This document shows, in pieces, positions 6,729 to 50,660 of a DNA stretch of 64,000 nucleotides (positions within the stretch are counted from its first letter, which is position 1; the number at the start of each line of letters is the position of its first letter). Where the stretch lies: the NCBI GenBank assembly GCA_026004535.1, contig BPJI01000001.1, positions 324,523 through 388,522 of the forward strand, read 5' to 3'. Origin of the DNA: Candidatus Parcubacteria bacterium (lineage in GTDB: Bacteria > Patescibacteriota > Minisyncoccia > UBA6257 > HR35). Under the pieces are notes generated by a model. The model was not told the DNA's origin. It searched no databases and saw nothing but the letters and a program-made list of their open reading frames with translations. The translations under genes were made by a program, and so were the position numbers.

Positions 6729-6752
6729 AATTGTAAATGTGGAAAAATATAA

Positions 6753-6820: not shown

Positions 6821-6831
6821 CTAAATTAAAG

Positions 6832-9219: not shown

Positions 9220-9325
9220 GTTTCAGGGATTAGGGGTTAGCTTTAAGAGCGGAGATCATTTTATTGAGAATTTTCATTATATCTTCTAAAAGTAAATCTA
9301 CTTTAGAGTAATCAAGATCTTTTGT

Positions 9326-9655
9326 TTATTTTAATCTTTTTGCTATTTCTAAATGTGTTTCTAATTCAGCTCCCGAAGCATAAGCAATTCTTAAAAATTG
9401 AATAAAATCTTTTCTTGTTCTTCGCGATCTTCCTTCAGCTATATTGGCCGGGATAGAAACAGCTGCTCTTTTAATTTGACTTACCAATCCATATGTTTCT
9501 TCTTTGGGGAAATATTTGGTTAATTCATAAATTTCCATAACTAATTCAATGGCTTTTTGCCAGACAAGCAGATCTTTATAAGATAGAATTTTTTTATTAC
9601 CAGAGCTTTTTTCATATAATAATTTTACAATATAATTAACCTGACAGCTGACCAC
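9326..9655 (-). CDS. four-helix-bundle protein ('23S rRNA intervening-sequence protein' family), copy 1
   Basis: ILSYKDLLVWQKAIELVMEIYELTKYFPKEETYGLVSQIKRAAVSIPANIAEGRSRRTRKDFIQFLRIAYASGAELETHLEIAKRL. Paralogue of 28995..29378. The N-terminus differs by a 2-nt indel, so there is a possible start or frameshift issue. Confidence 0.6.
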   Translation of the reverse strand: MVSCQVNYIVKLLYEKSSGNKKILSYKDLLVWQKAIELVMEIYELTKYFPKEETYGLVSQIKRAAVSIPANIAEGRSRRTRKDFIQFLRIAYASGAELETHLEIAKRLK

Positions 9656-9674
9656 CTGAAAGCTGACAGCTGAG

Positions 9675-9776
9675 ATGAAAAATCCTGAAGTGGCAAAACT
9701 TTTAAGGATGATGGCAATTTATTTGGAGATGAAAGGAGTTTAGTTTAAACCTCAAGCTTATGAAAAGGCTGCTTAA
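9675..9776 (+). pseudogene. truncated 5' fragment of a DNA polymerase X gene (duplicate of the 29465 start)
   Basis: MKNPEVAKLLRMMAIYLEMKGV*FKPQAYEKAA* is nearly identical to the PolX N-terminus at 29465 and is interrupted by stops. Ends at the palindromic repeat. Confidence 0.6.
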
Positions 9777-9782
9777 AAAATC

Positions 9783-9801
9783 TAAGACGTACGACGTCTT
9801 A
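9783..9801. repeat. palindromic hairpin repeat TAAGACGTACGACGTCTTA
   Basis: Exact copy at the junction between the PolX fragment and the duplicated promoter cassette. Confidence 0.7.
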
Positions 9802-9825
9802 AATTGGGGTTGAGGAAAAGTTGGG

Positions 9826-9854
9826 TTGACAAAATAAAATAGTTAGGATATAAT
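9826..9854 (+). promoter_or_regulatory. sigma70-like promoter (TTGACA-17-TATAAT), identical to those at 6753/6792
   Basis: TTGACAaaataaaatagttaggaTATAAT. Confidence 0.55.
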
Positions 9855-9865
9855 CTAAATTAAAG

Positions 9866-12454
9866 ATGAACAAAAAAATACTTTTATTTACTTTAGTTTT
9901 AGGAGGTTTATTGCTCAGTTTTTTCTTTCTCTCTTTCTTTAAATCTACTTCTGCTCAAGTTTGTCTTCCTCTTAATGGTTATCTTGTTTGGCCAGGAACA
10001 TGGGAATCAGGCAGAATTCCTATGGCTTCAACACAACAATATACCTTATCAAGCTCTCCTTTTTATGTTTCTGGCAATAATGTTGGTTTAGGAACAACCA
10101 ATCCTGTCTATACTTTTCAAGTTAATGGAGATATTTCAGGAACAAGACTTTGTATTGGTAGTGATTGTCGTAATGTTTGGCCTGGTGGAGGAATTGCTGG
10201 TTCTGGTTCAGCTGGTCAAGTAGCTTTTTGGACAGGAACATCAAATATTTCAGGTGACAATGCTCTTTTTTGGGACAATATTAATAAAAGATTAGGAATT
10301 GGAACAATATCACCTCAGACATCTTTGCATGTTGCTGGTAATATCACTGCTAATACTTTTTTAGGTACAATCAATGCAGCTAATATTTCTTCAGGACAAT
10401 TTGGAGCAAATACAGGTGGAGGGAATTATAGTTTTCCTGGCAACGTCGGCATCGGGACGACGAATCCGACTGGAAAGCTACACGTCTATAATGGAAGTAC
10501 AGAATTAATGAAAGTTGTATCTGATGTGGATGTAGTTGGCATCGTGGTAGGACCAGCTATTGGTGGAAGACATTTAATAATTAATGATATTGCTCAAGCA
10601 AGATGGGCATTTGCAACTGGATATTATGATTTATCTATTCAAAATGATTATGGTGGAAGTTGGAATACTAGAATGATAATAACAGAAGACGGCAACGTCG
10701 GCATCGGGACGACGGCGCCCGGGGCGAAGTTGGATGTTGCTGGAAATATAAGCATTAGTGGTGTAGCTGATCTGGGTTTGGATGCAGGTGATGTAGCTGG
10801 CATAGTACCTTGGTATAGAGATATTTTTGCTTTCAAGACCCCAACTAACTTTGAATATTGGGATGGCACATCGTGGGTAGCATTTACTCCTACAAATCCT
10901 CAAGGAATGACTGCATGGGGAGCTGGATCTACAATCATACCGGCAGCAAATAAAGATAAGTTCAGGTTTATAATAGATACTGGTAATAGCGTTGGGTTAA
11001 GGGCAAACTTTCTTGTAGTTAGGGCTAGTGATTGTTGCCCGGGAAGTACTTATAAGGTTGAAGTTGAAGGTAGTAACGATCTAAGCACATGGAGTGGTGT
11101 TTTAACAAGTGGAAGCGGTTTTATGGGAGGCGCTCCAGACGCCCCAACAGTAATACCATTTTCAGGGGGCAACTATAGATATGCTAGGATAACCTTTACC
11201 AAACTTTCAGGTACAAGCACAAATGCATTTAGTATTTATGAATTGCATTTATTTAACAATTGGTCACCAGCTTATGCCAATCTTCCAATAAAATGGGATA
11301 CTAATGGCAACGTCGGCATCGGGACGACGGCGCCTTCTTATAAATTACATGTTCAAGGGGGAGATATTTATGCTTCCTCTTATGTAATAGGAGGGTTAGG
11401 ATTATGTATTGGGTATGATTGTCGAACTTCATGGCCACAAGGATTAACTGGAAGTGGAAGCTCTAACGCAATTGCTGTTTGGACAGGAAGTACAAGTTTG
11501 GGATCATCTATTATTTCTCAATCAGCTGGTAGTGTTAATATAGGTGGATCACTTAGTGTTTCAGGTTCTATTTCAGGTAACAGCGTTAGTGTTTCAGGTT
11601 CTGTTTCAGGTAACAGTGTTAGTGGTAATACATTATGTATTGGGTCTGATTGTCGAACTTCATGGCCACAAGGATTAACTGGGGGTGGAAGCTCTAACGC
11701 AATTGCTGTTTGGACAGGAAGTACAAGTTTGGGATCATCTATTATTTCTCAATCAGCTGGTAGTGTTAATATAGGTGGATCACTTAGTGTTTCAGGTAGT
11801 GGTATTTATACTTCAGGATCTGTTAGTGCATCGGGCGCTGTTAGTGGCAGTATGTTATGTATTGGGTCTGATTGTCGAACTTCATGGCCATCAGGATCAG
11901 GAGGATTAACTGGAAGTGGAAGCTCTACTGCAATTGCTGTTTGGACAGGAAGTACAAGTTTGGGATCATCTATTATTTCTCAATCAGCTGGTAGTGTTAA
12001 TATAGGTGGATCACTTAGTGTTTCAGGTTCTATTTCAGGTAACAGCGTTAGTGTTTCAGGTTCTGTTTCAGGTAACAGTGTTAGTGGTAATACATTATGT
12101 ATTGGGTCTGATTGTCGAACTTCATGGCCATCAGGATCAGGAGGATTAACTGGAAGTGGAAGCTCTAGTGCAATTGCTGTTTGGACAGGAAGTACAAGTT
12201 TGGGATCATCTATTATTTCTCAATCAGCTGGTAGTGTTAATATAAATGGGTCCCTTAGTGTTTCAAATTCTATTTCAGGTGGATCTATATGTATTGGATC
12301 TTCTTGCCGAAGTTCATGGCCCGTAGGATGTAGTTGGCAGGGTGTTAGTTGTAGTAATTATATTTATTTTAGTAACGGCAACGCTAGAGTGTGTATAGAG
12401 TGTCTTAATGGTGTTGTTACTAGTTTTTATATGGAGGGGGGAAGTCTGCCGTAG
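9866..12454 (+). CDS. large exported surface protein, paralogue of 6832 with an identical first about 190 aa; Ser/Gly-rich tandem repeats and a Cys-rich C-terminus
   Basis: The first about 570 nt are identical to 6832. Three copies of the GC-rich motif GGCAACGTCGGCATCGGGACGAC. Four to five tandem copies of about 234 bp (LCIGSDCRTSWP…SLSVSGSISGNSVSVSG). Ends …FYMEGGSLP*, with a frameshifted repeat of the tail downstream. Confidence 0.7.
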   Translation: MNKKILLFTLVLGGLLLSFFFLSFFKSTSAQVCLPLNGYLVWPGTWESGRIPMASTQQYTLSSSPFYVSGNNVGLGTTNPVYTFQVNGDISGTRLCIGSDCRNVWPGGGIAGSGSAGQVAFWTGTSNISGDNALFWDNINKRLGIGTISPQTSLHVAGNITANTFLGTINAANISSGQFGANTGGGNYSFPGNVGIGTTNPTGKLHVYNGSTELMKVVSDVDVVGIVVGPAIGGRHLIINDIAQARWAFATGYYDLSIQNDYGGSWNTRMIITEDGNVGIGTTAPGAKLDVAGNISISGVADLGLDAGDVAGIVPWYRDIFAFKTPTNFEYWDGTSWVAFTPTNPQGMTAWGAGSTIIPAANKDKFRFIIDTGNSVGLRANFLVVRASDCCPGSTYKVEVEGSNDLSTWSGVLTSGSGFMGGAPDAPTVIPFSGGNYRYARITFTKLSGTSTNAFSIYELHLFNNWSPAYANLPIKWDTNGNVGIGTTAPSYKLHVQGGDIYASSYVIGGLGLCIGYDCRTSWPQGLTGSGSSNAIAVWTGSTSLGSSIISQSAGSVNIGGSLSVSGSISGNSVSVSGSVSGNSVSGNTLCIGSDCRTSWPQGLTGGGSSNAIAVWTGSTSLGSSIISQSAGSVNIGGSLSVSGSGIYTSGSVSASGAVSGSMLCIGSDCRTSWPSGSGGLTGSGSSTAIAVWTGSTSLGSSIISQSAGSVNIGGSLSVSGSISGNSVSVSGSVSGNSVSGNTLCIGSDCRTSWPSGSGGLTGSGSSSAIAVWTGSTSLGSSIISQSAGSVNINGSLSVSNSISGGSICIGSSCRSSWPVGCSWQGVSCSNYIYFSNGNARVCIECLNGVVTSFYMEGGSLP
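11395..12330. repeat. about 234-bp near-identical tandem repeats (x about 4.5) inside the 9866 gene
   Basis: ttatgtattgggtctgattgtcgaacttcatggcca… recurs at about 11400, 11637, 11866, 12100 and 12290. Confidence 0.8.
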
Positions 12455-13299: not shown

Positions 13300-13660
13300 C
13301 GCTGAGAGCATTATTTTACCCGGATAAATACCGGATTATTTTACCCGGATAACCAACCGGATAATGTTTACCCGGATGAATACCGGATATTAAAATATCT
13401 ACCCGGATAGTCAACCTGATAGATCACCCGGATTATTACTGTATAAATCTGGTTTAAATCCGGGTAGTTATATCAGGTTAATATCCGGGGGATTATATCT
13501 GATTTAAATCCAGGTAACTTATCCGGTCATAATCCGGGTATTTGTATCCGCTTTGGATCAGGGTAGCTTATCCGGTTTAAATCCGGGTGCTATTATCCGG
13601 TTAATATCCGGGTAATTATATTTTCTCCTGCTGTCCGCGGTGAATAATTCTTCCGTGTTA
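13300..13660. repeat. CCGGAT-type periodic palindromic element (about 21-bp phasing), about 360 bp
   Basis: Left half is …tacccggataaataccggattattttacccggataacc…. Right half carries the reverse complements (…atccgggta…atccggt…). Right terminus is CTGCTGTCCGCGGT. Confidence 0.7.
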
Positions 13661-26199: not shown

Positions 26200-27819
26200 A
26201 TGAAACTTCATAATTTTTACTTCCTACTTATTACTTCTTTTTTCGTCGCTATTCTTTTTTCTTCTTACTTTATAATTTTTCAACCATCTTATGCTTGGAT
26301 AAATCCATCCCAAAATCCACCCTTAGGAGGCGGAGTATTACAAACAGACACTTCTGGTTTAAAAATTGTCACCACAACTCAGATCACTTCAGGAAATTTT
26401 ACAGTCAACACCGGCAACGTCGGCATCGGGACGGCAAACCCAAATAGTAAACTTCAAATTGATGATCAATCTGCTTCTCATTATATTGGTCGTTATGATC
26501 CAACTTGTTGTGGATCTTCACAAATCCCAGCGAATCAATTTAGAGGTTTTACAGTATTTTGGAATACAGATTTAGCAATGTTTGGGTTAAGAGATTATGG
26601 AGGCGACAGAAAAGATGTGGTAATAAATAATGAACAAGGAGGGGATAATATTAGATTTCAAATCGCAGGTTCTGATGTAATGTTTATAAGAGGAAGTGAC
26701 GGCAACGTCGGCATCGGGACGACAGCACCAGGGGCAACTGCACGTAGCTTCAGGACTAATTGAAACTGGCACTAGAAGCGTAAAACAGTAATTAAATGTA
26801 GATTCTTGCGGAACAACAAGAGTTACAAGCGTTCTAATGGAATCTGGGCGCTGATTTAGTGGTGGATCGGGATGAATGGTTTATTGGTCGCAAGATAGAG
26901 ATGGCGGAGAAGCAAGCTTAGTTTAGAATGTCGGAACGATGCCAATGATCATATAGCTCTAATGCCTCCGGCAACGTCGGCATCGGGACGACGCATCCGT
27001 GAACAAAGTTGGATGTAGTAGGCTCGATCTAGAACTTAGCAGCTAGTCTCACTCTCTCAGCTATGGTTTGATTGGACAAACTCAAAGCTACGATTTACTT
27101 CGCTCAAGCAGATTACAATCCTGAGCAGTATTACTGGGTTGGTAGCTGAGTTAAATCAAATATGGCACAATAGGGTTATCTGGTGCAAGGAAGCTCTAGT
27201 GGACTTTTGACTTATAGACAGTGGTCTTCAGGAAAGATTGGACTCGGCAGGTGGATACATCAGTTAGCGTTCATGGTTCAAGTGGATAACTTATCTGGCA
27301 TGGATATAGCCAACTACTGGTTCTTGGAGGGAATTGGGCAAGATCTCTTCGATACAGCAAATGTAGGTAAAACATCTAGTTTCTGCAGAATAGATGGAAC
27401 TGGCGATTCCTATATTATGCGGCAACGTCGGCATCGGGACGACAGCACCAGGGTATAAATTAGATGTTGCTGGAGATGTGCATGGAACAAGTTTTCCTGT
27501 TTCTTCTGATATAAGATTTAAGACTAATCTTGAGAAATTAGATAATGTTTTAGCTAAATTAGAAAATATTAATGCTTATAAATTTGATTGGAATGAGTTG
27601 TATCAGAAATTGGGAAGAAGTGATAATCGCAGACATATTGGAGTAATTGCTCAAGAAATTGAAAAGGAATTTCCTGAATTAGTGAGTGAATGGGAGCAAG
27701 ATGGAGTAAAATATAAAGCAGTTGATTATTCAAGATTGACGGTAGTTTTGCTTGAAGCAATCAAAGAACAGCAAAAACAGATTGAGGAATTAAAAAGACA
27801 GCTTTCAGTTTTCAGGTAG
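26200..27819 (+). pseudogene. degenerate tail-fibre-like surface-protein gene: intact N-terminal fragment (26200-26763), frameshifted/stop-interrupted middle, intact S74-chaperone-domain tail (27394-27819)
   Basis: N-terminal signal plus GNVGIGT motifs. Four more copies of the GGCAACGTCGGCATCGGGACG 21-mer at 26413, 26701, 26970 and 27421. Stops between 26763 and 27394. C-terminus …IGVIAQEIEKEFPELV…YKAVDYSRLTVVLLEAIKEQQKQIEELKRQL. Confidence 0.5.
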
Positions 27820-28447: not shown

Positions 28448-28969
28448 ATGAATCAGATAAATTGGAAGAGGGTTTGGGCCACGGTCGGAGTAGCTATGGG
28501 AGTATTAATTATCGGTTTTTTGGTTTGGTATTTATTTTCCAAGCCTTCACCAGTCGTTCAAAAACAAGAACAAAAATTACCCGGAGGATTGACAGCCGAA
28601 GATTTGAAAAAAATTCCAGTCCCTGAACCAGGAGAAAAAGTTGAACAAAAAGTTGCTGTTCCCAAAGAAGCTGTAAAAGCAGGCCCAGAAACTGAAAGTA
28701 AATTAAGAATTTTTGAAATTAAAGGAGAAAATGGAACAATTTCACCAGTAATGTTTCGTGCTTATCAAAATGATATTATTAATATAAAATTAACTGCAGT
28801 TGATAAGGATTATGAGTTAAGATTGGAAGGTTATAATCTTGAGGTTAAAGCACAAAAAGGAGAAACAAAAACAATTGAATTTCAAGTTCTCAATCCAGGA
28901 GTTTTTAATTTATATTGTTCGGAATGTAGAACAGAGAAAGTGGGAAATGTGATTGTGGTTCCGAGATAG
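28448..28969 (+). CDS. membrane-anchored exported protein, possible cupredoxin-like beta-sandwich C-terminal domain
   Basis: N-terminal TM (VWATVGVAMGVLIIGFLVWYLF). C-terminal …TIEFQVLNPGVFNLYCSECRTEKVGNVIVVP resembles a cupredoxin-like strand arrangement. Fold call is weak. Confidence 0.4.
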   Translation: MNQINWKRVWATVGVAMGVLIIGFLVWYLFSKPSPVVQKQEQKLPGGLTAEDLKKIPVPEPGEKVEQKVAVPKEAVKAGPETESKLRIFEIKGENGTISPVMFRAYQNDIINIKLTAVDKDYELRLEGYNLEVKAQKGETKTIEFQVLNPGVFNLYCSECRTEKVGNVIVVPR

Positions 28970-28994
28970 CTTTCAGGTAGTCAGCTTTCAGCTT

Positions 28995-29378
28995 TCAGGT
29001 TTCAGCTTTCAATTTTGAGATCATTTTATTTAGCATTTTCATTACATCTTTTAAAAGTAAATCCACCTTAGAGTAATCGATATTTTTTGTTTCTTTCAAT
29101 CTTTTGGCTATTTCTAAATGTGTTTCTAATTCAGCAGACGAGGCATAAGCAATTTTTAAAAATTGGACAAAGTCTCTTCTTGTTCTTCGAGATCGTCCTT
29201 CAGCTATATTGGCTGGAATAGAAACAGCCGCTCTCTTGATTTGGCTTACCAATCCATATATTTCTTCTTTAGGAAAATGTTTAGTTAGTTCATAAATTGC
29301 AATGACTAATTCAATAGCTTTTTGCCATACAAGTAAATCACGATAAGATAGAATTTGCCTGTCAGGAGTTTTTCTCAT
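28995..29378 (-). CDS. four-helix-bundle protein ('23S rRNA IVS protein' family), copy 2
   Basis: MRKTPDRQILSYRDLLVWQKAIELVIAIYELTKHFPKEEIYGLVSQIKRAAVSIPANIAEGRSRRTRRDF…. Confidence 0.7.
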   Translation of the reverse strand: MRKTPDRQILSYRDLLVWQKAIELVIAIYELTKHFPKEEIYGLVSQIKRAAVSIPANIAEGRSRRTRRDFVQFLKIAYASSAELETHLEIAKRLKETKNIDYSKVDLLLKDVMKMLNKMISKLKAET

Positions 29379-29464
29379 ATAATAATTTTATCAAAAATAT
29401 TTCACTGAAAGCTGACAGCTAATTAATTATATGAAAGCTGACAGCTAATTCCCTGAAAGCTAGG

Positions 29465-31183
29465 ATGAAAAATCCTGAAATTGCAAAATTATTAAGGATG
29501 ATGGGAATTTATTTGCAGATGAAGGGAGTTCAGTTTAAGCCGCAGGCTTATGAGAAAGCTGCTTATTCGATTGAGGCTTTGGATGAGGATATTGAAGAAT
29601 TTATTAAAAAAAATGGCAAAGAAGGATTGAAAAATTTACCCGGAGTAGGGGAGTCAATTGCAGAAAAAATAATTGAATATTTAAAAACAGGAAAAATTAA
29701 AGAACTGGAAGAATTAAAAAAAGAAGTACCAGTTGATGTTGAGACCTTAACTTCAATTGAAGGAGTTGGGCCAAAGATTGTTTATAAACTTTATAAAGCT
29801 TTGGGAATAAAAACAATTGAAGATTTAGAAAAAGCTTGTCGGGAGCATAAAATAAGAAGATTGCCTGGATTTGGAGAAAAAAGTGAAGAAAAAATTTTAA
29901 AAGGAATTGAATTTTTCAAACAAGGTGGAGGAAGAGTAATTTTGGGTTTTATTATTCCCGTGGTTGAAGAATTAGTAAGTTATTTAAAAGAAAGTGGGTT
30001 GGCCAAAGAAGTTGTGCCTGCTGGTTCTTATCGTCGAAAAAAAGAAACAATTGGTGATATTGATATTTTGGCTGTTTCTGATAAACCTGAAAAATTAATG
30101 GATTATTTTGTCAAGTTTCCTGAAGTAAGTAATATTTATGCTCAAGGACCAACTAAAACTATGGTTAGACTAAAAATTGGGCTTGATGCTGATTTAAGAG
30201 TTGTACCCGAAGAAAGTTTTGGTGCTGCGCTGGCTTATTTTACTGGCTCAAAGGATCATAATATTAAAATGAGGGAATTGGCAATTAAGAAAGGATGGAA
30301 ATTGAATGAATATGGACTTTTTGATAAACAGGAAAAAATGATAGCTGGCAGAACTGAAGAAGAAATTTATGAAAAACTTGGTTTAGATTGGATACCACCT
30401 GAGATGAGAGAAAATCGAGGTGAGATTGAATTAGCAATGGAGGGGAAATTACCAAAATTGATTGAATATGGTTCAATTAAGGGTGATTTGCAAGTTCAGA
30501 CAAATTGGACTGATGGCCAAAATTCAATTGAGGAAATGGTTGAGGAAGCAATTAAATTAGGTTTGGAATATATTTGCATTACTGATCATACTAAATCTTT
30601 GGCAATGACTGGTGGTTTGGATGAGGAAAAATTATTAAAGCAGATGGCTGAGATTGATAAATTAAATCAAAAATATAAAGGCAAGATAAAAATTCTAAAA
30701 GGAGCGGAAGTTAATATTTTAAAAGATGGTAGTTTGGATATCAAAGATGAAGTTTTGGCAAAATTAGATTTTGTTGGCGCTGCTATTCATAGTCATTTTA
30801 ATTTACCTCGAAATGTTCAAACTGAAAGAATTAAAAAAGCAATGGCTAACCCTAATGTTGATTGTATTTTTCATCCAACTGGCAGAGTGATTAACAAAAG
30901 ACCTGCTTATGAAGTTGATATTGATGAAATTATTGATTATGCTAAAAAGACTAAGACTATTTTAGAAATTGATGCTTATCCTGATAGACTTGATTTGAAA
31001 GATGAACATATAAGAAAGTGTGTTGAAAAAGGAGTAAAGATGGTAATTGATAGTGATGCTCATTCAGTTTTACATTTAGGTTTTTTAGATTTAGGAGTGA
31101 GCCAAGCACGTCGTGGATGGGCAACGCCGTCCGATATTATTAATACTTTAGCATATGATAAATTCAATTCATTAATTCATTAG
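29465..31183 (+). CDS. DNA polymerase X family protein (Pol-beta-like core plus C-terminal PHP phosphoesterase domain)
   Basis: HhH motifs (GVGESIAEKI, GVGPKIVYKL), palm …GSYRRKKETIGDIDIL…, PHP …ITDHTKSLAMTGG…HSHF…DSDAHS…. Confidence 0.85.
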   Translation: MKNPEIAKLLRMMGIYLQMKGVQFKPQAYEKAAYSIEALDEDIEEFIKKNGKEGLKNLPGVGESIAEKIIEYLKTGKIKELEELKKEVPVDVETLTSIEGVGPKIVYKLYKALGIKTIEDLEKACREHKIRRLPGFGEKSEEKILKGIEFFKQGGGRVILGFIIPVVEELVSYLKESGLAKEVVPAGSYRRKKETIGDIDILAVSDKPEKLMDYFVKFPEVSNIYAQGPTKTMVRLKIGLDADLRVVPEESFGAALAYFTGSKDHNIKMRELAIKKGWKLNEYGLFDKQEKMIAGRTEEEIYEKLGLDWIPPEMRENRGEIELAMEGKLPKLIEYGSIKGDLQVQTNWTDGQNSIEEMVEEAIKLGLEYICITDHTKSLAMTGGLDEEKLLKQMAEIDKLNQKYKGKIKILKGAEVNILKDGSLDIKDEVLAKLDFVGAAIHSHFNLPRNVQTERIKKAMANPNVDCIFHPTGRVINKRPAYEVDIDEIIDYAKKTKTILEIDAYPDRLDLKDEHIRKCVEKGVKMVIDSDAHSVLHLGFLDLGVSQARRGWATPSDIINTLAYDKFNSLIH

Positions 31184-31247
31184 TTCACTAGTTCCGAGCT
31201 CACGGGTTCGATTATAAAAATTAAAAAATTTGAAGATTTAAATATTG
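31166..31247. repeat. about 80-bp direct repeat, copy A (ATTAATTCATTAGTTCACTAGTTCCGAGCTCACGGGTTCGATTATAAAAATTAAAAAATTTGAAGATTTAAATATT)
   Basis: Exact second copy at 31817-31896. The two copies bracket the RelE/ParE cassette. Confidence 0.8.
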
Positions 31248-31317
31248 ACGAATTTTAGAAATATGGTATAATATATAAAACTGAAAAGCTTTGAAGCTTG
31301 GAAGCTGAAAAGCCATT

Positions 31318-31524
31318 TTGAAAATGCCTTTAATTGCTAAAAATAAAAATTTAGAAAGGATCGGTACTTTAGAAGTGATGGGTAAAAAATTTGTTGTTAT
31401 GAGCAAAGAACATTTTGATGAATTGTTGATTCTATTTAAAAGTGTGATAGATGGTGAAAAATTACTGAAGAGGAAAAAAACGAGAAGTTTCGATGAGTTC
31501 CTAAAGAGTATGTCTAAAAAATGA
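31318..31524 (+). CDS. putative type II antitoxin
   Basis: 68 aa, overlaps the downstream toxin by 4 nt. Assigned by position. Confidence 0.45.
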   Translation: MKMPLIAKNKNLERIGTLEVMGKKFVVMSKEHFDELLILFKSVIDGEKLLKRKKTRSFDEFLKSMSKK

Positions 31525-31805
31525 GAATCTTGCGTTCTCATACCACGCCTCAATTTGAAAAAGATTTTTTGTCTTTGCCAAAAGATATTCGTTTAAAAGC
31601 AGAAAGAAAGATAAAACTTTTTGAAGCTAATTGCTTCCATCCATCTTTAAGGGCTCATAAACTTAAAGGTATTCTTCGAGATTTCTGGTCATTTTCTATT
31701 AATAGAACTTACCGAGTAATTTTTAAATTTTTAGAAAATAATGAAGTAATTTATTATCGTATAGGTAGACACGATATTTATCAGCAATTAGAAAAATTAG
31801 TTTAA
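31521..31805 (+). CDS. RelE/ParE-family type II toxin
   Basis: …HPSLRAHKLKGILRDFWSFSINRTYRVIFKFLENNEVIYYRIGRHDIY…. Confidence 0.65.
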   Translation: MRILRSHTTPQFEKDFLSLPKDIRLKAERKIKLFEANCFHPSLRAHKLKGILRDFWSFSINRTYRVIFKFLENNEVIYYRIGRHDIYQQLEKLV

Positions 31806-31816
31806 TAATTAGTTAA

Positions 31817-31896
31817 TTAATTCATTAGTTCACTAGTTCCGAGCTCACGGGTTCGATTATAAAAATTAAAAAATTTGAAGATTTAAATATTTGGAA
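31817..31896. repeat. about 80-bp direct repeat, copy B
   Basis: Identical to 31166-31247. Confidence 0.8.
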
Positions 31897-32230
31897 ATTA
31901 AGTCTTAAAATTACAAAAGAAATTTATGATTTAACCTCTAAAAAAGAATTTTCTAAAGATTTTGCCTTAAAAGATTAACTAAGAAGAGCAATCATTTCTG
32001 TAAGTTCAAATATTGTTGAAGGCTTTGAGAAAAACAATAATAATGAATTTATCAGATTTTTAAAGATTGCTAAAGGTTCTGTTGCTGAAGTTAGAAATCA
32101 ACTTTATATTGCTTTAGCAGTAAATTATATTTCTCAACAAGAATTTGATAGAATAAATAAAAAATTTAGAAGATTTAGCAAGCCAAATTGAAGGCTTTAT
32201 AACTTATTTAGAGAAAGATAGAGAGAATAG
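31880..32230 (+). pseudogene. four-helix-bundle protein remnant (interrupted by stops)
   Basis: IWKLSLKITKEIYDLTSKKEFSKDFALKD*…RAIISVSSNIVEGFEKNNNNEFIRFLKIAKGSVAEVRNQLYIALAVNYISQQEFDRINKKF…; same family as 9326 and 28995, plus strand. Confidence 0.5.
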
Positions 32231-32297
32231 AAAAAGAACTCGTAATTCGTAATTCGGAATTGATAAATTTTGAATTTATGATATAATATAAATAGGA

Positions 32298-34913
32298 ATG
32301 TTTCCAATTAATCGTTTTACATTTAAGGCTCAGGAGGCATTGCAAGAGGCTCATAATAAGTGTTTTGATTTACATCATTCTGAAGTAAAAGGAATCCACA
32401 TTTTGTGGGGTATTTTAAATGTGAGCGAGACAATCGTTGGCGATATTTTAAAAGAACTTAAGGTTAATAATCAGCTCTTACTTCATACAATTGAAGAAGA
32501 ACTTAATCGACTGCCGAAAATTTTTACTGGTGGTAATATTGCTCAAGTTTATCTTTCTCAAGAAGCGTATCAAATTTTAGATCAGGCTGGCTATTATGCC
32601 CGAAAGATGGGAGATGAATTTATCTCTTTAGAACATATTTTACTTTCTTTAACAGAAATAAGATCAACTGCTAAATATATTTTAGAAAGATATGGTATAA
32701 CTTTTGATCGAGTTCAAAAAGTTTTAGCTATTTTAAGAAAAGGAGAAAAAGTCACTGATGAATTGCCAGAAACAAAATATAAATCTTTAGAAAGATATAG
32801 TCTTAATTTAACTCAGTTAGCTCGAGAAAAGAAATTGGATCCAATTATTGGTCGTGATCGAGAAATAAGAAGGATTATTGAAATTTTATCAAGAAGAACA
32901 AAAAATAATCCTGTTTTAATTGGTGAAGCCGGAGTTGGTAAAACAGCCATTGTTGAAGGTTTGGCACAAAGAATTGTTAGTGGTGATGTGCCTGAATCAA
33001 TTAAGAAAAAAGAAATTTTAGCCCTAGATATCGGTGCTTTAATTGCTGGGACAAAATATCGTGGTGAGTTTGAAGATAGATTAAAAGCAATTATTAAAGA
33101 GATAAAAATTAACGTTGGAAGATATATTTTGTTTATTGATGAGATGCATACTTTAGTTGGTGCTGGAGCAGCCGAAGGAGCAATTGACGCTTCAAATTTA
33201 TTGAAACCTGCTTTAACTAAGGGTGATTTTCAAGTAATTGGTGCAACAACATTTAGAGATTATAAACTTTATATTGAAAAAGATCCTGCTTTTGCTCGGC
33301 GTTTTCAACCAGTTATCGTTGAAGAACCATCAATTGATGATACTATTGCTATTTTAAGAGGTCTGAAGGAAAAATATGAACTTCATCATGGAGTTAAAAT
33401 TCTAGACTCGGCTATTGTGGCCGCAGTTAAACTTTCAGCTCGTTATATTACTAATAGATTTTTGCCTGATAAAGCAATCGATGTTATTGATGAAGCAGCA
33501 GCTTCAGTCAGACTTCAATTAGAAACAATGCCAGCAGAAATTGAAGATTTAGAAAAAGAAATTAGGAAATTAGAGATTGAACGAGAAGTTTTAATCAAAG
33601 AGGAAGGAACAAGAAATGAATTAAAACAAATTGAGGCAAAATTGGAAAAATTAAGAAAGGAAAAAGAAAAATTGATGGAAAAATGGTCGGTTGAGAAAAA
33701 AGCAAGTGAAAGATATTTAGAATTAAAGAAAAAATTAGAAAATTTGAAAATTGAAGCTGAAGATGCTGAAAGAAATAGTGATTTTACTAGAGTAGCAGAA
33801 ATAATTTATGGTGAAATTCCTCAAATTGAAAAAGAGCTCCAAGATATTGAGGTTAAATTAAAGAAAGTAAAAAATAGTTTTATCAAGGATTCAGTTACTG
33901 AAGAAGATGTGGCCGAAGTTGTTTCTCGCTGGACAAAGATTCCCGTTAAAAAGATGATGGAAAATGAAATGGAGAAATTATTGAAAGCTGAAGAAATTTT
34001 AGGTCAAAGAGTAGTTGGTCAAGAAGAAGCAATAAAAGCAGTTGCTAACGCTTTAAGAAGAGCCAGAGCAGGTTTAGCTGAAGAGAATAAACCAATTGCT
34101 AGTTTTCTCTTTTTAGGGCCAACGGGTGTTGGTAAAACCGAAATGGCTAGAACCTTGGCTGAATTTATGTTTAATGATGAAAAAGCAATGATTCGAATTG
34201 ATATGTCAGAATATATGGAGCCTCATTCGGTTGCTAAATTGATTGGTTCGCCTCCTGGTTATGTTGGTTATGAAGAAGGTGGGCAATTAACTGAAGCTGT
34301 TAAATATAGACCCTATAGTTTGATTTTGTTTGACGAGATAGAAAAAGCCCATCCTGAAGTTTTCAATATTTTACTTCAAATTTTAGATGAAGGTAGATTG
34401 ACTGACGGCAAGGGAACAACTGTTAATTTTAAAAATACAATCATTATTATGACTTCTAATATTGGTAGCTATTTGTTTAGAAAAATGGGTTCAATTGGTT
34501 TTTCCGATGAAACTAAAGAACCAATGGAGGATTATAAAGATAAAATTCAAAAAGCCTTAAGAGATTTCTTTAAGCCAGAATTTTTAAATCGTATTGATGA
34601 AATTATTATCTTCAGACCATTAAACAAAGAAGACTTAAGAAAAATTGTTGAGATTCAACTTAATAAAGTTAAGCAAAGATTGGCTGAGAGAGGAATTGAA
34701 GTTGGGTTTAGCGATGAAGTAAAGGAGGTTTTGGTAGAAAGAGGTTTTGACGAAGTTTACGGGGCCAGACCACTTCAGCGCGCAATTCAGAAATATATTC
34801 TTAATCCATTGTCAGAAAGTATTATCGCCAAGAAAATTCAGGAAGGTCAAAAAATTATTTTAGGCATAAGACACGGAGAATTAGTGATTAATAATAGTAA
34901 GAAGAACAAATAA
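32298..34913 (+). CDS. clpB: ATP-dependent chaperone ClpB
   Basis: Two AAA+ modules (GEAGVGKTAIVEGLA; GPTGVGKTEMARTLA), a long middle coiled coil, Clp_N repeats. 871 aa. Confidence 0.9.
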   Translation: MFPINRFTFKAQEALQEAHNKCFDLHHSEVKGIHILWGILNVSETIVGDILKELKVNNQLLLHTIEEELNRLPKIFTGGNIAQVYLSQEAYQILDQAGYYARKMGDEFISLEHILLSLTEIRSTAKYILERYGITFDRVQKVLAILRKGEKVTDELPETKYKSLERYSLNLTQLAREKKLDPIIGRDREIRRIIEILSRRTKNNPVLIGEAGVGKTAIVEGLAQRIVSGDVPESIKKKEILALDIGALIAGTKYRGEFEDRLKAIIKEIKINVGRYILFIDEMHTLVGAGAAEGAIDASNLLKPALTKGDFQVIGATTFRDYKLYIEKDPAFARRFQPVIVEEPSIDDTIAILRGLKEKYELHHGVKILDSAIVAAVKLSARYITNRFLPDKAIDVIDEAAASVRLQLETMPAEIEDLEKEIRKLEIEREVLIKEEGTRNELKQIEAKLEKLRKEKEKLMEKWSVEKKASERYLELKKKLENLKIEAEDAERNSDFTRVAEIIYGEIPQIEKELQDIEVKLKKVKNSFIKDSVTEEDVAEVVSRWTKIPVKKMMENEMEKLLKAEEILGQRVVGQEEAIKAVANALRRARAGLAEENKPIASFLFLGPTGVGKTEMARTLAEFMFNDEKAMIRIDMSEYMEPHSVAKLIGSPPGYVGYEEGGQLTEAVKYRPYSLILFDEIEKAHPEVFNILLQILDEGRLTDGKGTTVNFKNTIIIMTSNIGSYLFRKMGSIGFSDETKEPMEDYKDKIQKALRDFFKPEFLNRIDEIIIFRPLNKEDLRKIVEIQLNKVKQRLAERGIEVGFSDEVKEVLVERGFDEVYGARPLQRAIQKYILNPLSESIIAKKIQEGQKIILGIRHGELVINNSKKNK

Positions 34914-36984: not shown

Positions 36985-37047
36985 CCTCTTTTTATGTATC
37001 TGCTTAATTGTATTTCGCCTTTAAATTTTAGCACAATTTTCCACATC

Positions 37048-37075
37048 TTGACATCATATTTTTTCTATTTATAAT
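37048..37075 (+). promoter_or_regulatory. sigma70-like promoter (TTGACA-16-TATAAT) for the pilin-adhesin gene
   Basis: TTGACAtcatattttttctatTTATAAT. Identical copy at 57789-57817. Confidence 0.5.
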
Positions 37076-37081
37076 TAAATT

Positions 37082-37402
37082 ATGAATAAAAAAATGAATA
37101 AATCCTTCACTTTAGTTGAACTCTTAGTTGTCTTAGCTCTAATAGCTATCTTAGCTACTGTCTTAATTGTTGTCATTAAGCCAGCAGATATCTTTAAAAG
37201 AGGTAGAGATAGTCAAAGAACTTCAGACCTTAAAAATCTTGAAAAAATATTTGACCTTATTCTTTTTGAAACTCAAGGCACCTTTTCTGAACTTCAATAT
37301 GCTTCCTCAAATGTTGTCTATATCTCTCTTCCTGATACTTCATCAACTTGTGGTCAATGGATAAGTCAATTACCACAGCTTCCTTCAGGCTGGTCATATT
37401 GA
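37082..37402 (+). CDS. type IV pilin-like module (prepilin N-terminus), terminated by an in-frame TGA that is followed by 296 further sense codons
   Basis: MNKKMNKSFTLVELLVVLALIAILATVLIVV…; TGA at 37400-37402. Confidence 0.7.
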   Translation: MNKKMNKSFTLVELLVVLALIAILATVLIVVIKPADIFKRGRDSQRTSDLKNLEKIFDLILFETQGTFSELQYASSNVVYISLPDTSSTCGQWISQLPQLPSGWSY

Positions 37403-38290
37403 TGCTCAGCAACTCCAACAAATATTGATGGTACTGGCTGGATTCCTATTCCTTTTAATCAATTTTCAAGCATTAATCTTTCTAGACTTTTCATTGATCC
37501 AATCAATAGACCTCCATATTACTATGCATTTGTTGCTGGAGGAAGTTATGCTCTCTATGCTCAATTAGAAAATCCTCAGTCTCAAGCCTCAAAAACAGAC
37601 AATGATAATTATCCTCATCTATTTTCAGTAGGAACAAATAAAAGACTCATTGATCAAGCTCAAGGACTTGTAGGGTATTGGTCTTTTGATGAAGGAAGTG
37701 GAAATATTGCTAATGATTATTCAGGAAACAATAATAATGGAACACTCTATAATGGTCCTCAATGGGTTGATGGTAAAGTAGGTAAAGCTTTAAGTTTTGA
37801 TGGAGTGGATGATTATGTGAATGCATGGACTGGCCCCGGCTCGCAAATTACCGATAGAGTTACTGTGAGCGCGTGGGCTCGTAATGTGGGAGCTCCTTCA
37901 GCGTTTAATACGATTATTGCTAATTATGCTTCGAATGCGGGATGGGCAATACGCACCGCAGAATCGGGGATTAGTTACCTGCATTTCTTAGGACGATCCG
38001 GCGCAGGCGAAGTGCGAGTTATCATTGCTTCCGAGGCGGAAACATTTAATGGTGCATGGCACCATGTCGCATTTACGGTGTCTGGAGGCGTTGCGAGAAC
38101 ATATCTTGACGGTGGTTTTGTTGCTTCCGCGTCTGGTGTTGTGAATTTGCAACCAGCGACGACTACTTTGATTGGGAAGGGTCATATAGGAGGACTTGGC
38201 TTCTGGAACGGTCTTATCGACGAAGTTCGTATCTACAATCGCGCTTTATCAGATCAAGAAATAAAGGTTCTTTATGAAGCAACTAAATAA
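37403..38290 (+). other. in-frame, stop-free continuation of the pilin ORF after the TGA: LamG/ConA-like lectin (jelly-roll) domain
   Basis: Same frame as 37082. No start codon for about 400 nt. …NGAWHHVAFTVSGGVARTYLDGGFVASAS…GLIDEVRIYNRALSDQEI… is a LamG-type signature. Confidence 0.5.
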
Positions 38291-47984: not shown

Positions 47985-48375
47985 GATTAACGCAGACAGC
48001 AACAGAAAAAATATTTTCTGCCCGGATATTAACCGGATAAGTTACCCGGATTCTTACCGGATATACTACCCGGATTCTTACCGGATAATATTTCATTATT
48101 TTACCCGGATATTAACCGGATGATAGCTACCCGGATTTAGACCGGATATACTACCCAGCTATAAACCGGATGATTTATAAAATATTTTTTATCCGGTATT
48201 CATATCCGGGTAAAATAATCCGGGTGGCTATCCGGGTAATCTATTCCGGTAAGTTATCCGGGTAAAACAATCCGGTATTTATCCGGGTAATCCATCCGGT
48301 TGACTATCCGGTTAATATTTTAATATCCGGTAATCATCCGGGTAAATAAATATCCGGTTGATTATCCGGGTTAAA
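47985..48375. repeat. CCGGAT-type periodic palindromic element, about 390 bp
   Basis: Left …cccggatattaaccggataagttacccggattcttaccggatatac…. Right half carries the reverse complements …atccgggtaaaataatccgggtggctatccgggtaatc…. Confidence 0.7.
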
Positions 48376-48905: not shown

Positions 48906-50660
48906 AAATTCCCTTAAAAAATAAACAAAAGCAATTTTATACGCCACGGATTCACGCCGATTTTTATAATCCACGGATTTACGCGGATTTAGAACGGATT
49001 TACGTGGATTATTATCATTAGGATTTAGGCGGATGTTGTTTCCGGGTAGTATTCTTTCTTTTTCATAAAAGCTATGAATTTTTTTAGCTAAATCAATTAA
49101 ATAATCAGTGAGAAGATGAGGTCTTTTTTCTTTGTAAATTAAATAAATTAAATCTTGTAATTGATGAACCTTTCTTAAAATTATTTTAGCTGAGTCAATG
49201 TCTTTAATTGATAAGAAAACTTTTTGCGCATCAATTATTCGTGTTAATTCGCTTTTTATTCGTGTTAATTCGCGTCCTTTCTCCAAAATACTATTTAACC
49301 TTGCACAAGCATATTGAATATACCAATAAGGATTTTCCTCTGATTCTTTTTTGGCTAAATCTAAATCAAATTCAATCATAGCCTCAGGAGATTTTTGTAA
49401 AAAGAAAAATCTAACAACTCCTGAGTCAATTTCGTCAATTAAGTCTTGTAAAGTGATAAAAACTCCTCTTCTTTTTGACATTCTTAAATATTCTTGTCCT
49501 TTTTTAAGATGAACAAATTGATAAACTATCGGTAAAAATTGGTAATCTTTAATGCCAAAAATTTTTAAAGCGGCTCTCAATCTGCGAGTGTGATCAAGAT
49601 GGTCACTAGCAACAATTAAAATTTCTATCTTATTTTTCTTAAGAAAAAATTTATGGTAATAGTGTAAAATATCAGAGAAAAAATAAGTTGGTTCACCATT
49701 TTGTTTAATTAAAACTTCATCTTTATCTTCACCCAATTTTGTTAAAAGCAAAAACAAAGCTCCATCTCTATTTTCAATTAATTTTTTTCTTTCAAAAATT
49801 CTTAGAACTCTTTTATCTAAATTTTTTTTATAGAGATCCGTTTCAAAGAAGTACCAATCAAAATTAGTGCCAAAATTTTTTAAGGCTTGTTTAATGAGAT
49901 TCTTTAAAATATAATCAGCTACTTTTTTGCCAATTTTTTCTAATATTACAGACTCATGCTGATTTAGAATTGTTTTTATTTCTTCACTCAACTTTTCAGC
50001 AATCTCTTTTAGATATTCACCTTGATAAAAATTGCTTTCCCAATCAAGATAACCTAAATGAGCCAAGACTGTTTTGGCTAAAATCTCAATTTGATTTCCG
50101 CGATCATTAACGTAATATTCCCTAGTAACTCTAAATCCAGCTAATTTTAAAATGTTTGCCAAAGTATCTCCTAAAACAGCACCTCGAGCATTTCCTAAAG
50201 TTAAAGGCCCAGTAGGATTAGCGGAGACATAATCAATATTTAATTTTTGTTTTCGACCATAATTTTGTTGGAAAAATTTTTCTTTATTTTTATAAATTGC
50301 TCTAAATGTTTTTAAAAGCTGATAATCAGAAAGCCAAAAATTTAAGTAATTATTGACAATCTCGATTTTTTTGAAAACCAAGGATTTTCGCGGATTTAAA
50401 ACGGATTTATGCGGGTTATTATCAGCGTTGATCCTTTTTGAAATCTGTGTAAATCTGTGTTTAATTTTATCAATAATTATTTTTTCTTTTTCCGGAGCAA
50501 ATTGTTTTAAAAGAAAAATTAGATTGGTTGAATAATCACCTAATTTTTCATCATCAATTAAAAATACTTTTAATTTTTGTAAAATTTTCTCTGCTTTTTC
50601 TTTATCGATTTCTTTTCTAATTAAATTTTTCAATTTTTGCTCTAAAAGATAAAGATTCAT
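48855..50660 (-). CDS. argS: arginyl-tRNA synthetase
   Basis: …YVSANPTGPLTLGNARGAVLGD…. In-frame CACGGAT-repeat insertions near both ends (48930-49040 and 50380-50420). Confidence 0.85.
   Translation of the reverse strand: MNLYLLEQKLKNLIRKEIDKEKAEKILQKLKVFLIDDEKLGDYSTNLIFLLKQFAPEKEKIIIDKIKHRFTQISKRINADNNPHKSVLNPRKSLVFKKIEIVNNYLNFWLSDYQLLKTFRAIYKNKEKFFQQNYGRKQKLNIDYVSANPTGPLTLGNARGAVLGDTLANILKLAGFRVTREYYVNDRGNQIEILAKTVLAHLGYLDWESNFYQGEYLKEIAEKLSEEIKTILNQHESVILEKIGKKVADYILKNLIKQALKNFGTNFDWYFFETDLYKKNLDKRVLRIFERKKLIENRDGALFLLLTKLGEDKDEVLIKQNGEPTYFFSDILHYYHKFFLKKNKIEILIVASDHLDHTRRLRAALKIFGIKDYQFLPIVYQFVHLKKGQEYLRMSKRRGVFITLQDLIDEIDSGVVRFFFLQKSPEAMIEFDLDLAKKESEENPYWYIQYACARLNSILEKGRELTRIKSELTRIIDAQKVFLSIKDIDSAKIILRKVHQLQDLIYLIYKEKRPHLLTDYLIDLAKKIHSFYEKERILPGNNIRLNPNDNNPRKSVLNPRKSVDYKNRRESVAYKIAFVYFLREFLGFALSLINIKPIKKL

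Follow-up and report, generated by a model that had tools for sequence, protein, structure and literature searches.

A toxin–antitoxin cassette next to polX in a Parcubacteria genome lies between identical 76 bp direct repeats, probably a target duplication

Restriction–modification (RM) units can insert into chromosomes with long target duplication (Nobusato et al. 2000, Gene 259:99; Furuta, Abe & Kobayashi 2010, PMC2853133). The duplications are long and variable, mobility genes are absent and, in many cases, a repeat extends into the end of a neighbouring gene (PMC2853133). Known cases are biased to naturally competent species (PMC2853133). A 2013 review of RM and toxin–antitoxin (TA) mobility describes this mode for RM units only (PMC3874152). 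Our own literature search, which covered few subscription journals, found no report of it for TA modules.

Chromosomal integrons typically contain TA cassettes with flanking repeats of ~60–130 bp. Their attC site is a structured imperfect palindrome, common to many cassettes, that needs the IntI integrase. Foreign DNA can also be added non-specifically, with no dedicated recombinase, by homology-facilitated illegitimate recombination or microhomology template switching. The settings are competent bacteria or stalled forks. After template switching, the target may be left in duplicate, while homology-facilitated illegitimate recombination usually deletes recipient DNA and seldom duplicates it.

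We focused on a TA locus in Ca. Parcubacteria KatS3mg096, a species that occurs once in the collections searched. The window is the whole 64-kb stretch of DNA analysed. Features are as follows, with window coordinates.

29465–31183, + strand: polX, DNA polymerase X with a PHP domain (572 aa; Pfam HHH_8, DNA_pol_B_thumb and PHP)
31171–31246, + strand: repeat copy 1, an exact direct repeat of 76 bp
31245–31272, + strand: predicted TA promoter (TTGACG, 16-nt spacer, TG-extended TATAAT; 11/12 matches)
31247–31815, + strand: putatively inserted cassette of 569 bp, from promoter to 10 nt beyond the toxin stop
31324–31524, + strand: antitoxin candidate (66 aa from ATG; 68 aa from TTG at 31318)
31521–31805, + strand: RelE/StbE-family toxin (ParE/RelE superfamily; 94 aa, intact)
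31816–31891, + strand: repeat copy 2, the same 76 bp as copy 1, reading unbroken into the remaining four-helix-bundle (4HB) pseudogene
31859–32252, + strand: 4HB pseudogene (PF05635/TIGR02436, '23S rRNA IVS protein') with three lesions
32240–32261, + strand: 7-nt tandem repeat (TCGTAAT x3) in the 3' flank of the 4HB pseudogene
32260–32287, + strand: predicted clpB promoter
32298–34913, + strand: clpB

The cassette is a predicted type II TA pair with its own promoter. The original prediction placed only a two-gene TA module of 570 bp between the repeats. This was borne out; the interval is 569 bp and holds a promoter-like site and two ORFs. Its GC content is 27.9%, compared with 31.7% for the window. 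The −35 hexamer spans the junction between repeat and cassette; its TT belongs to the repeat and its GACG to the cassette. A conserved TG-extended −10 likewise precedes homologous antitoxins. The toxin (100% identical to KatS3mg096_362) scores above the cut-offs of TIGR02385 (RelE/StbE; 32.6 bits, cut-off 27.9), PF05015 (29.9, cut-off 27), PF24732 (24.9, cut-off 24.4) and PF05016 (23.9, cut-off 23). Of the 45 positions with at least 90% conservation among 78 homologues, it retains 44. No solved structure was matched by sequence. The stop of the antitoxin candidate overlaps the toxin start (ATGA, 4 nt). A partner ORF lies upstream of the toxin in 11/11 homologous loci searched with tblastn, and is 45–49% identical where measured. 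The candidate has no Pfam or NCBIfam match at E <= 0.01. The pair resembles RelBE, ParDE and HigBA modules in having a toxin above the TIGR02385 and PF05015 cut-offs, an overlapping upstream partner and a promoter of its own. It differs from them in that the antitoxin candidate falls outside described families.

The flanking repeats had been described as perfect over 80 bp, at 31166–31247 and 31817–31896. They are indeed direct repeats, but the perfect identity extends for 76 bp and the positions were a few bases off. With one mismatch, the pair lengthens to 79 bp (31168–31246 and 31813–31891). With one gap, it reaches 86 bp at 96.5% identity (31161–31246 and 31807–31891). Copy 1 contains the polX codons L-I-H-stop, a spacer and a 4HB stub. 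As predicted, it overlaps the polX stop, beginning at the fourth-last codon. An 8-nt tandem repeat (TTCATTAG-like) occupies 31168–31194, across the end of polX and copy 1. PolX is 93% identical to KatS3mg094 PolX; its C-terminus is NSLIH* in place of the ...FLxxLKKNK tail usual in the clade. The 4HB stub in copy 1 consists of a former start codon (ATA at 31214) and 10 further codons, followed by DEF-stop.

The repeat is unique in the DNA searched. Allowing up to 3 mismatches, a search of the window recovered its 43-nt core only in the two copies, and 0 are expected by chance (100 shuffles). The core is absent from 185,579 species genomes. The sole metagenome match (L055) was dismissed as chance similarity to GC-rich coding DNA. 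The window also has several further recent local duplications.

A decayed 4HB gene had been predicted after the second repeat. The gene is present, and its start lies inside the repeat itself. The first lesion is a change of the start codon from ATG to ATA at 31859, found in both repeat copies. The second converts codon 40 from CAA to TAA (31976–31978), and the third is a +1 frameshift near 32162. Once repaired, the protein reaches 112.5 bits with the TIGR02436 model. It has >1100 Patescibacteria homologues at E <= 1e-10; the best identity is 85%, and identities are 73–85% among the 120 matches listed of these >1100. The repaired-protein search gave no usable orthologous context. Reading the in-frame TAA as a recoded codon, an idea considered for two 4HB genes, was rejected: TAA serves as an ordinary stop in other genes here, and the 4HB gene has lost its start and carries a frameshift as well.

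Within each repeat copy, the polX stop is followed by a spacer and the 11 initial 4HB codons. Hence, a single copy rebuilds an ordinary boundary between the polX stop and the 4HB start, and serves as a surrogate for an empty site. We interpret the locus as the insertion of a self-contained TA cassette with long target duplication, using no transposase, integrase or specific site (probability about 0.6). The repeats would thus be the product of the event and not a recombination site that was there beforehand. This reverses the causal order of the original prediction, in which recombination between the repeats brought the module in. Its other element, addition of the TA to a pre-existing junction of polX and the 4HB gene, agrees with the rebuilt boundary and with the polX loci of relatives, where the TA is missing. 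It also agrees with homologous cassettes elsewhere, which carry a like footprint made from different local sequence.

The evidence from relatives is as follows. The 54 polX loci compared from other species include none with this TA or a 4HB gene (0/54; flanks up to 6 kb per side). The polX loci of the closest relatives lack the TA by tblastn (L001–L005 and L036), as does a 90%-identical lineage (P0224) by called genes. Synteny at polX is not conserved. In relatives, a glycosyltransferase, GH57 and pilB come after polX; the order polX...clpB seen in the window recurs in a single relative (L005). An empty-site junction would read polX end–repeat–TGGAAATTAAG; none was found in the 54 polX loci or the P0224 lineage. 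Hence, the case for insertion is made from the anatomy of the locus together with TA absence in relatives. On these grounds, we infer that the event was an insertion and not another rearrangement.

The main competitor begins with the TA already in place. Local tandem amplification of a unit comprising the TA, spacer and 4HB start could have occurred at an existing polX–TA–4HB arrangement, with later loss of the first TA. Unequal crossing-over or slippage would create the array, and the trailing repeat of the deleted TA would be left by polX. The same toxin family does lie directly 3' of polX, without repeats, in two other distant lineages (L060–L069), so the linkage of polX and TA could be older than the repeat. 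Adjacency of polX and TA is kept in the P0006 and P0017 lineages. The other recent duplications in the window would fit such a history. However, the TA is absent at polX of the closest relatives. Moreover, the window toxin is no nearer to polX-linked toxins (72% and 69% identical) than to one beside ruvA (72%). Because the polX stop lies within the repeat, there is no trace of a first TA between polX and copy 1. Two events would be needed, the second being a precise deletion of 569 bp while the repeats are still 100% identical. We consider this explanation unlikely, even though an intermediate of exactly this kind exists at other loci.

That intermediate emerged when we compared homologous cassettes. 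Cassettes of the same family in two other Patescibacteria lineages are flanked by repeats derived from their own downstream gene starts. At one pair of loci (L056/L057), the repeat is 81 bp, 83% identical and equates to the radC leader with the first ~20 codons. At another locus (L078), it is 65 bp, 78% identical and corresponds to the start of a Mur-ligase gene. Two further loci (L058/L059) have a decayed second TA copy 5' of the repeat, giving the order [TA remnant]-repeat-TA-repeat-radC. Here, the TA copies (~80%) and the repeat copies (~78%) are similarly diverged. As judged by these divergences, tandem amplification of a TA and repeat unit fits L058/L059 better than a single insertion. 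Against extending this to the window, the stop of the upstream gene is inside or abuts copy 1 at L078 and L002 also.

The footprint was not confined to one toxin family. Screening 838 kb of Patescibacteria sequence in an unbiased way, we looked for direct repeats of 40–200 bp spaced 300–2500 bp apart. Intragenic repeats aside, the scan yielded small cassettes only. Three were RelE cassettes; three of the cases come from loci fetched for holding this TA, so the estimate of enrichment is partly biased. The remainder were an AbiEii/DUF6922 cassette with a 59-bp repeat from the gyrA 3' end, a HicB/HicA cassette (57-bp repeat), a cassette of HicA and a partner (47-bp repeat) and an unknown 345-aa gene whose repeat is the 3' end of polX. 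A relaxed scan added a ParE/RelB pair (L002), whose flanking repeat, 38 bp and perfect, duplicates the polX start. Excluded from the count were a duplicated terminator hairpin (L015), pairs enclosing housekeeping genes (L013 and L021) and a pair with masked Ns within it (L027). No empty-site genome was found for these other footprint cases either.

These data also bear on a circular intermediate. A circle with one repeat and the TA could have integrated by Campbell-type homologous recombination at a repeat between polX and the 4HB gene, and may leave likewise. A single crossover would yield exactly repeat–TA–repeat, and 76 bp of perfect identity suffices for recombination by RecA. RM units are known to be amplified when the repeats that flank them recombine (PMC2853133). 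A circle junction would read toxin end–repeat–GACGAATT without flanks; a tandem-copy or circle junction would read toxin end–repeat–GACGAATTTTAG. The difficulty is that a circle needs a prior repeat–TA–repeat or TA–repeat locus, so the first insertion is unexplained. So too are the repeats of homologous cassettes, built from radC, Mur-ligase and polX starts. Furthermore, no second copy of the repeat or cassette was found in the window or collections. We therefore regard integration of a circle as improbable, and rather more so than tandem amplification.

Homologous cassettes also bear on assembly error. The source is a metagenome-assembled genome, and its two repeat copies are 100% identical. 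Conceivably, an empty polX–4HB chromosome and a variant or circle formed a cycle that the assembler threaded once. Both novel junctions (repeat to promoter and toxin end to repeat) must nevertheless exist in reads, and the usual reads are longer than a 76-bp repeat. The same architecture occurs in independent assemblies from other sources, with repeat copies 78–92% identical. Since those copies have diverged, those loci cannot be assembly cycles. An artefact in the window is very improbable.

We looked for machinery that could have mobilised the cassette. No integrase or transposase was found among 40 window ORFs scanned with Pfam; these were every ORF of at least 138 aa not already identified or within rRNA. 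The two cassette ends do not pair as terminal inverted repeats. An IS, MITE or transposon was rejected on this basis, and since the duplication is 76 bp compared with the typical 2–14 bp. Neither ARAGORN nor Rfam identified a tRNA or Rfam element at 31100–31900. An integrative island at a tRNA gene was likewise rejected, with the repeat outside tRNA/tmRNA and no recombinase in the window scan. In the AT-rich sequence of the junctions, we saw no convincing microhomology.

These results weigh on the possibility that the repeat is an att or attC-like site, acted upon by a recombinase encoded elsewhere. The GGTTCGATT motif in the repeat recalls a tRNA T-loop, and cassettes of this general kind are typical of chromosomal integrons. 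As a tRNA fragment or att site the motif was rejected, with nothing found there by ARAGORN or Rfam. On either strand, the repeat folds no better than shuffled sequences (z 0.41 and 1.13), so there is no hairpin and an attC-like structure was rejected. It is unique, corresponds to ordinary gene ends and is unrelated to the repeats of homologous cassettes (38–81 bp). No recombinase gene was found in the 64-kb window. A site-specific mobile cassette is already largely refuted. The search for additional copies, proposed with the original prediction, turned up none in the window or species genomes and one chance match in metagenomes. Similarities with chromosomal (super)integron cassettes are a promoter and TA unit of ~0.5–0.6 kb, repeats of tens of bases and a TA that stabilises its neighbourhood. 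Unlike those, the repeat here is unstructured, unique and derived from gene ends, and the window has no integrase.

RM insertions provide the closer parallel. In that class, direct repeats of >30 bp flank a complete addiction unit of <20 kb; the values here are 76 bp and 569 bp. In both, a mobility gene is lacking and the repeat is a duplicated local target, of variable length, that overlaps a gene end. The repeat is unique, in our case within the window and collections, and could support amplification. Natural competence is probable for the host group; Saccharibacteria have it (PMC10633639). There are also differences. The cargo is a type II TA (elsewhere type IV) and not an RM unit, which excludes DNA cutting by the cargo as the cause. 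Repeat length is 38–81 bp, compared with up to ~400 bp, and the hosts are Patescibacteria. RM cases were defined by empty-site comparison, whereas this one is defined by anatomy and TA-free relatives.

In our interpretation, the insertion would have gone as follows. A type II TA cassette enters after codon 11 of the 4HB gene directly 3' of polX, and 76 bp of target would be copied, so that the cassette is left with a copy at either end. Upstream, the copy would keep the polX stop and join an 11-codon remnant of the 4HB gene to the TA promoter. Downstream, the copy would restore the full 5' region of the 4HB gene, its start codon already lost. Because ATG is replaced by ATA in both copies, the duplication would post-date loss of the start. 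The two copies show no divergence, which points to a recent event, but gene conversion is another process that could preserve their identity. Our best guess for the duplication is that two single-strand breaks ~40–80 nt apart, or a gap, captured a DNA fragment and were filled in. Alternatively, a replicative template switch may have returned upstream of its departure point. The AT-rich junctions differ from those of microhomology-mediated processes in having no convincing microhomology. The DNA might have been imported by a naturally transformable cell.

Once in place, the present repeats could mediate deletion or tandem amplification. Inserts flanked by repeats would normally be lost by recombination between them, and would persist mainly as addiction modules. 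The perfect, recent-looking footprint in the window is joined by older ones, from this and other TA families, at unrelated targets. The same footprint at different spots suggests, from the sequences compared, a route for addiction genes to move without a transposon. More tentatively, and with somewhat less confidence than an even chance, Patescibacteria TA modules (RelE/StbE, ParE-RelB, HicAB and AbiE) may be autonomous promoter-to-stop cassettes that insert independently of recombinases and duplicate 38–81 bp.

For this genome alone the implications are modest: one small selfish cassette in a dead gene beside polX. Chromosomal TA loci hop between genomes and positions, and where there is no plasmid, phage, integron or transposon the route had no explanation. 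If this broader reading is correct, Kobayashi's RM insertion mode would extend to addiction modules generally. The common factor would then be post-segregational killing, guarding deletion-prone inserts, and not a DNA-cutting cargo. The footprints, and the position of the family 3' of polX, ligA, ruvA, gyrA and radC, would provide a handle on TA movement. Direct tests would be feasible in the one Patescibacteria group now open to genetics, which is also naturally competent. There would also be a sequence signature by which recently arrived TA and RM units could be recognised in any genome, one that persists through addictive cargo and not through DNA cutting.

Comparing the window with itself identified an exact direct repeat of 76 bp. 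Copy 1 (31171-31246) and copy 2 (31816-31891) lie either side of a toxin-antitoxin (TA) cassette. With one mismatch the repeat extends to 79 bp, and with one gap to 86 bp at 96.5% identity. Hence, the identical flanking repeats of the original prediction are present, but the perfect match is 76 bp rather than 80 bp and the coordinates were a few bases off. In the AT-rich window (31.7% GC), a 43-nt core of the repeat occurs exactly twice with up to 3 mismatches allowed; shuffled sequences are expected to contain none. The core had no match in 185,579 species genomes. Its sole metagenome match, in GC-rich DNA, was attributed to chance.

The repeat copies and the cassette sit among the following features.

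29465-31183, polX, called from Pfam
31245-31272, predicted promoter, near-consensus (TTGACG-16-TATAAT with TG), its -35 hexamer spanning the repeat/cassette junction
31324-31524, antitoxin candidate, a 66-aa ORF of no known family
31521-31805, RelE/StbE toxin of 94 aa, overlapping the 66-aa ORF by ATGA

Copy 1 opens at the fourth-last codon of polX, with L-I-H-stop inside the repeat. From there it passes through an 8-nt tandem repeat (TTCATTAG-like) and a short spacer, and it closes with the initial 11 codons of a four-helix-bundle gene (4HB; PF05635/TIGR02436), intact homologues of which begin MKI(K/Q)(K/R)FEDLxIW. Past copy 1, the 4HB frame reads DEF-stop. Copy 2 starts 10 bases past the toxin stop and runs on into the remaining 4HB gene. 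A single repeat copy is the ordinary boundary between the polX stop and the 4HB start. What separates the copies is a minimal TA unit of 569 bp, running from promoter to stop. The toxin matches KatS3mg096_362 with 100% identity and exceeds the curated thresholds of both TIGR02385 (RelE/StbE) and PF05015. Of 45 positions conserved to at least 90% in 78 homologues, it retains 44 and therefore looks functional. The 4HB gene is a pseudogene. Its start codon is ATA in both repeat copies (31214, 31859), codon 40 is changed from CAA to TAA, and the frame shifts by +1 near 32162. Once repaired, it scores 112.5 bits on TIGR02436; more than 1100 homologues in Patescibacteria match it at E <= 1e-10, the best with 85% identity. 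Such identity is unusually high for a small protein like this; the best homologues are 129 aa. Next comes clpB, with its own predicted promoter.

We considered whether the repeat belongs to a mobile element. On neither strand does it fold better than shuffles, the two ends of the cassette are not paired by an inverted repeat, and ARAGORN and Rfam detected no tRNA or RNA family at the repeat. A Pfam scan of 40 window ORFs (all of at least 138 aa not already identified or lying in rRNA) returned housekeeping, surface-protein and type IV pilus genes, and no integrase or transposase. An att/attC site, an IS end and a dispersed repeat family were ruled out because the repeat is unstructured and has neither a further copy in the window nor a true match in the collections, the cassette has no inverted ends, and the scanned ORFs include no recombinase. 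The same observations contradict a site-specific element, which we consider scarcely credible.

The polX locus was compared with that of relatives. The window PolX shares 93% identity with its KatS3mg094 counterpart; no match in the collections was closer, and none came from a second genome of the species. Among 54 polX loci from other species, none has this TA or a 4HB gene in the flanks covered, which reached up to 6 kb on each side. Neighbourhoods of polX are poorly conserved across species. The order polX...clpB-secE-nusG is common to the window and the close relative L005 only. In the two closest lineages, polX is followed by a glycosyltransferase, GH57 and pilB, so the window locus is rearranged. 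In this clade the PolX C-terminus is hypervariable beyond ...ILNTL, and the window tail, NSLIH*, is encoded by the 8-nt tandem units of the repeat. Therefore, change is frequent at the polX 3' end, which insertions or repeat arrays next to it overwrite again and again. PolX sequences P0219-P0257 agree up to ...ILNTL and diverge completely after it. The end of P0257 is translated 7-nt tandem repeats (QDSRIKNQESRIKN).

Intergenic regions of the window are full of short tandem repeats, with periods of 7-8 nt or multiples, e.g. 25-27 nt. Arrays lie at 28968-29011, 29406-29461, 9197-9244, 9639-9667, 31168-31194, 32240-32261 and 31286-31306, with many more (e.g. 13310-13621, 48021-48341). The window has three 4HB (PF05635) genes.

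9239-9655 (-), 4HB gene
28995-29378 (-), 4HB gene
31859-32252 (+), 4HB pseudogene after copy 2

Of the other two, one is intact and one is ended by GAA to TAA at residue 110/127. All three have tandem arrays on both sides, partly inverted (AGCTGTC/AGCTTTC upstream, CTGAAAG downstream). These resemble the stem-forming flanks of 23S rRNA intervening sequences, which carry the 4HB (PF05635) gene family. A 4HB gene and the first 33 polX codons are also copied 20 kb upstream (9252-9775 versus 29017-29565, 81% identical). This upstream copy lies against a duplication, 99.7% identical, of a promoter and 5' gene end (6701-7395 versus 9774-10429), common to two large surface-protein genes (6832-9219 and 9866-12454). 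Stubs of 5' gene ends fused to the next promoter recur. A 540-bp segment occurs twice, 20 kb apart (37012-37550 and 57753-58292, 99.6% identical). It holds a 106-aa type IV pilin-like gene (N_methyl motif), and its second copy is beside a tRNA cluster. Further features are listed below; the reverse gyrase is consistent with a thermophile.

50657-54355 (-), reverse gyrase, helicase and topoisomerase I, 1232 aa
38907-39813 (-), AbiEii toxin gene with an overlapping upstream 97-aa ORF, a possible antitoxin partner
5966-6259 (+), second, weak ParE-like toxin
333-1858 (+), 16S rRNA gene, overlain by spurious ORFs

Insertion with long target duplication was defined for restriction-modification (RM) units by genome comparison. 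The duplications are long and variable, no mobility gene is present, and the repeats are often at the end of a flanking gene. Cases are mostly in naturally competent species, and amplification of RM units via flanking repeats has been shown (PMC2853133). Our locus matches this pattern. Therefore, we read it, with a probability of roughly 0.6, as a recent insertion of the TA cassette into a 4HB gene beside polX that had already lost its start codon, with duplication of 76 bp of the target. In a later review on how RM and TA units move, this mode is given for RM only (PMC3874152). We found no TA example in the literature, coverage of which was thin for subscription journals. Saccharibacteria have been shown to be naturally competent (PMC10633639), and genes for pilB, pilC and pilins lie in the window.

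Toxins of this family occur widely in Paceibacteria; the next-best match is 76% identical. By lineage, their contexts are as follows.

P0006 and P0017, polX-TA-NUDIX
P0042, ligA-TA-gatC
P0005, ruvA-TA-Mur ligase
P0021, gyrA-(AbiE)-TA
P0011, PD-(D/E)XK-TA-radC
P0024, rpiB-TA-dehydrogenase
P0076, S74 peptidase-TA

Across comparison loci L056-L085 and the window, the TA is mostly directly downstream of a replication/repair gene (polX in 2-3 lineages, ligA, ruvA, gyrA, and a PD-(D/E)XK nuclease beside radC). This adjacency is more than expected by chance, for categories chosen after the fact. Direct repeats of the local target bracket the cassette in two of the listed contexts. In L056/L057, an 81-bp repeat (83% identical) comprises the radC leader and first ~20 codons. 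In L078, a 65-bp repeat (78%) runs from the ruvA stop through the first ~20 Mur-ligase codons. We scanned 86 sequences (838 kb) for direct repeats of 40-200 bp spaced by 300-2500 bp. Every match brackets a small cassette, save intragenic repeats in two large surface proteins.

The three RelE cassettes
AbiEii/DUF6922 pair, between copies of the final 59 nt of gyrA
HicB/HicA pair, with 57 bp from the promoter region of the next gene on each side
HicA pair, flanked by 47 bp from the end of the upstream gene
uncharacterized 345-aa gene, bracketed by the 3' end of polX
ParE/RelB pair in the close relative L002 (relaxed scan), flanked by a perfect 38-bp repeat of the polX start

Three of the cases are from loci chosen for carrying this TA, so that the enrichment is partly biased. 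These footprint repeats are 38-81 bp long, 78-100% identical and mutually unrelated. Each spans a gene boundary, and the neighbouring gene therefore stays whole, as purifying selection would leave it in compact genomes. Upstream of polX, L002 (237-2228) packs four TA-type units into 2 kb, including HicB/HicA (truncated), HEPN/nucleotidyltransferase and RelB/ParE; each of two units lies within a target duplication of its own (57 bp at 88%, 38 bp at 100%). At L047 (7675-8900), a displaced polX 3'-end fragment follows the 345-aa gene (HExxH motif). The left part of this fragment is nearer to the end of polX in L049, a sister species, than to the host's own, which suggests that the polX-attached copy either arrived together with the insert or underwent conversion afterwards. 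In the window, a perfect 34-bp direct repeat encoding GNVGIGTTAPG (26700-26733 and 27420-27453) flanks a 686-bp segment parting ORFs 26200-26763 and 27394-27819, the second with a Peptidase_S74 chaperone domain. The two ORFs may be one tail-fibre-like gene split by insertion with target duplication, or the arrangement may come from recombination between repeated motifs.

Homologous cassettes thus show the same footprint from other targets. Together with the normal boundary held in one copy, this supports the predicted insertion into the polX/4HB junction. Recombination between the repeats as its cause, precise excision and mobility at present remain hypothetical. Campbell-type integration of a circle carrying repeat and TA would account for re-insertion, not for the first arrival or the unlike repeats elsewhere, and we judge it improbable. 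The perfect copies could also signal a cycle in the assembly. However, diverged examples in independent assemblies indicate a real architecture, making an artefact very improbable. The strongest rival, though still unlikely, is tandem amplification of TA plus repeat, then loss of the first TA. At L058/L059 a decayed upstream TA copy has diverged about as far as the repeats, and polX-TA linkage recurs in distant lineages. However, L058 is also readable as later amplification through repeats, and in the window the polX stop lies inside copy 1, there is no TA remnant and the copies are identical.

For the insertion reading, the duplication could arise from capture at a gap or staggered nick with fill-in, or from a template switch returning upstream. 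RelE-type toxins cut mRNA, not DNA; hence, cargo enzymology cannot be the common cause. We suggest that repeat-flanked inserts would normally be deleted when their repeats recombine, and that addictive ones survive. Taken alone, the locus is a dead gene harbouring one small selfish cassette. If our reading is true, a known but little-studied insertion mode reaches TA modules of several families, and this locus is one perfect instance.
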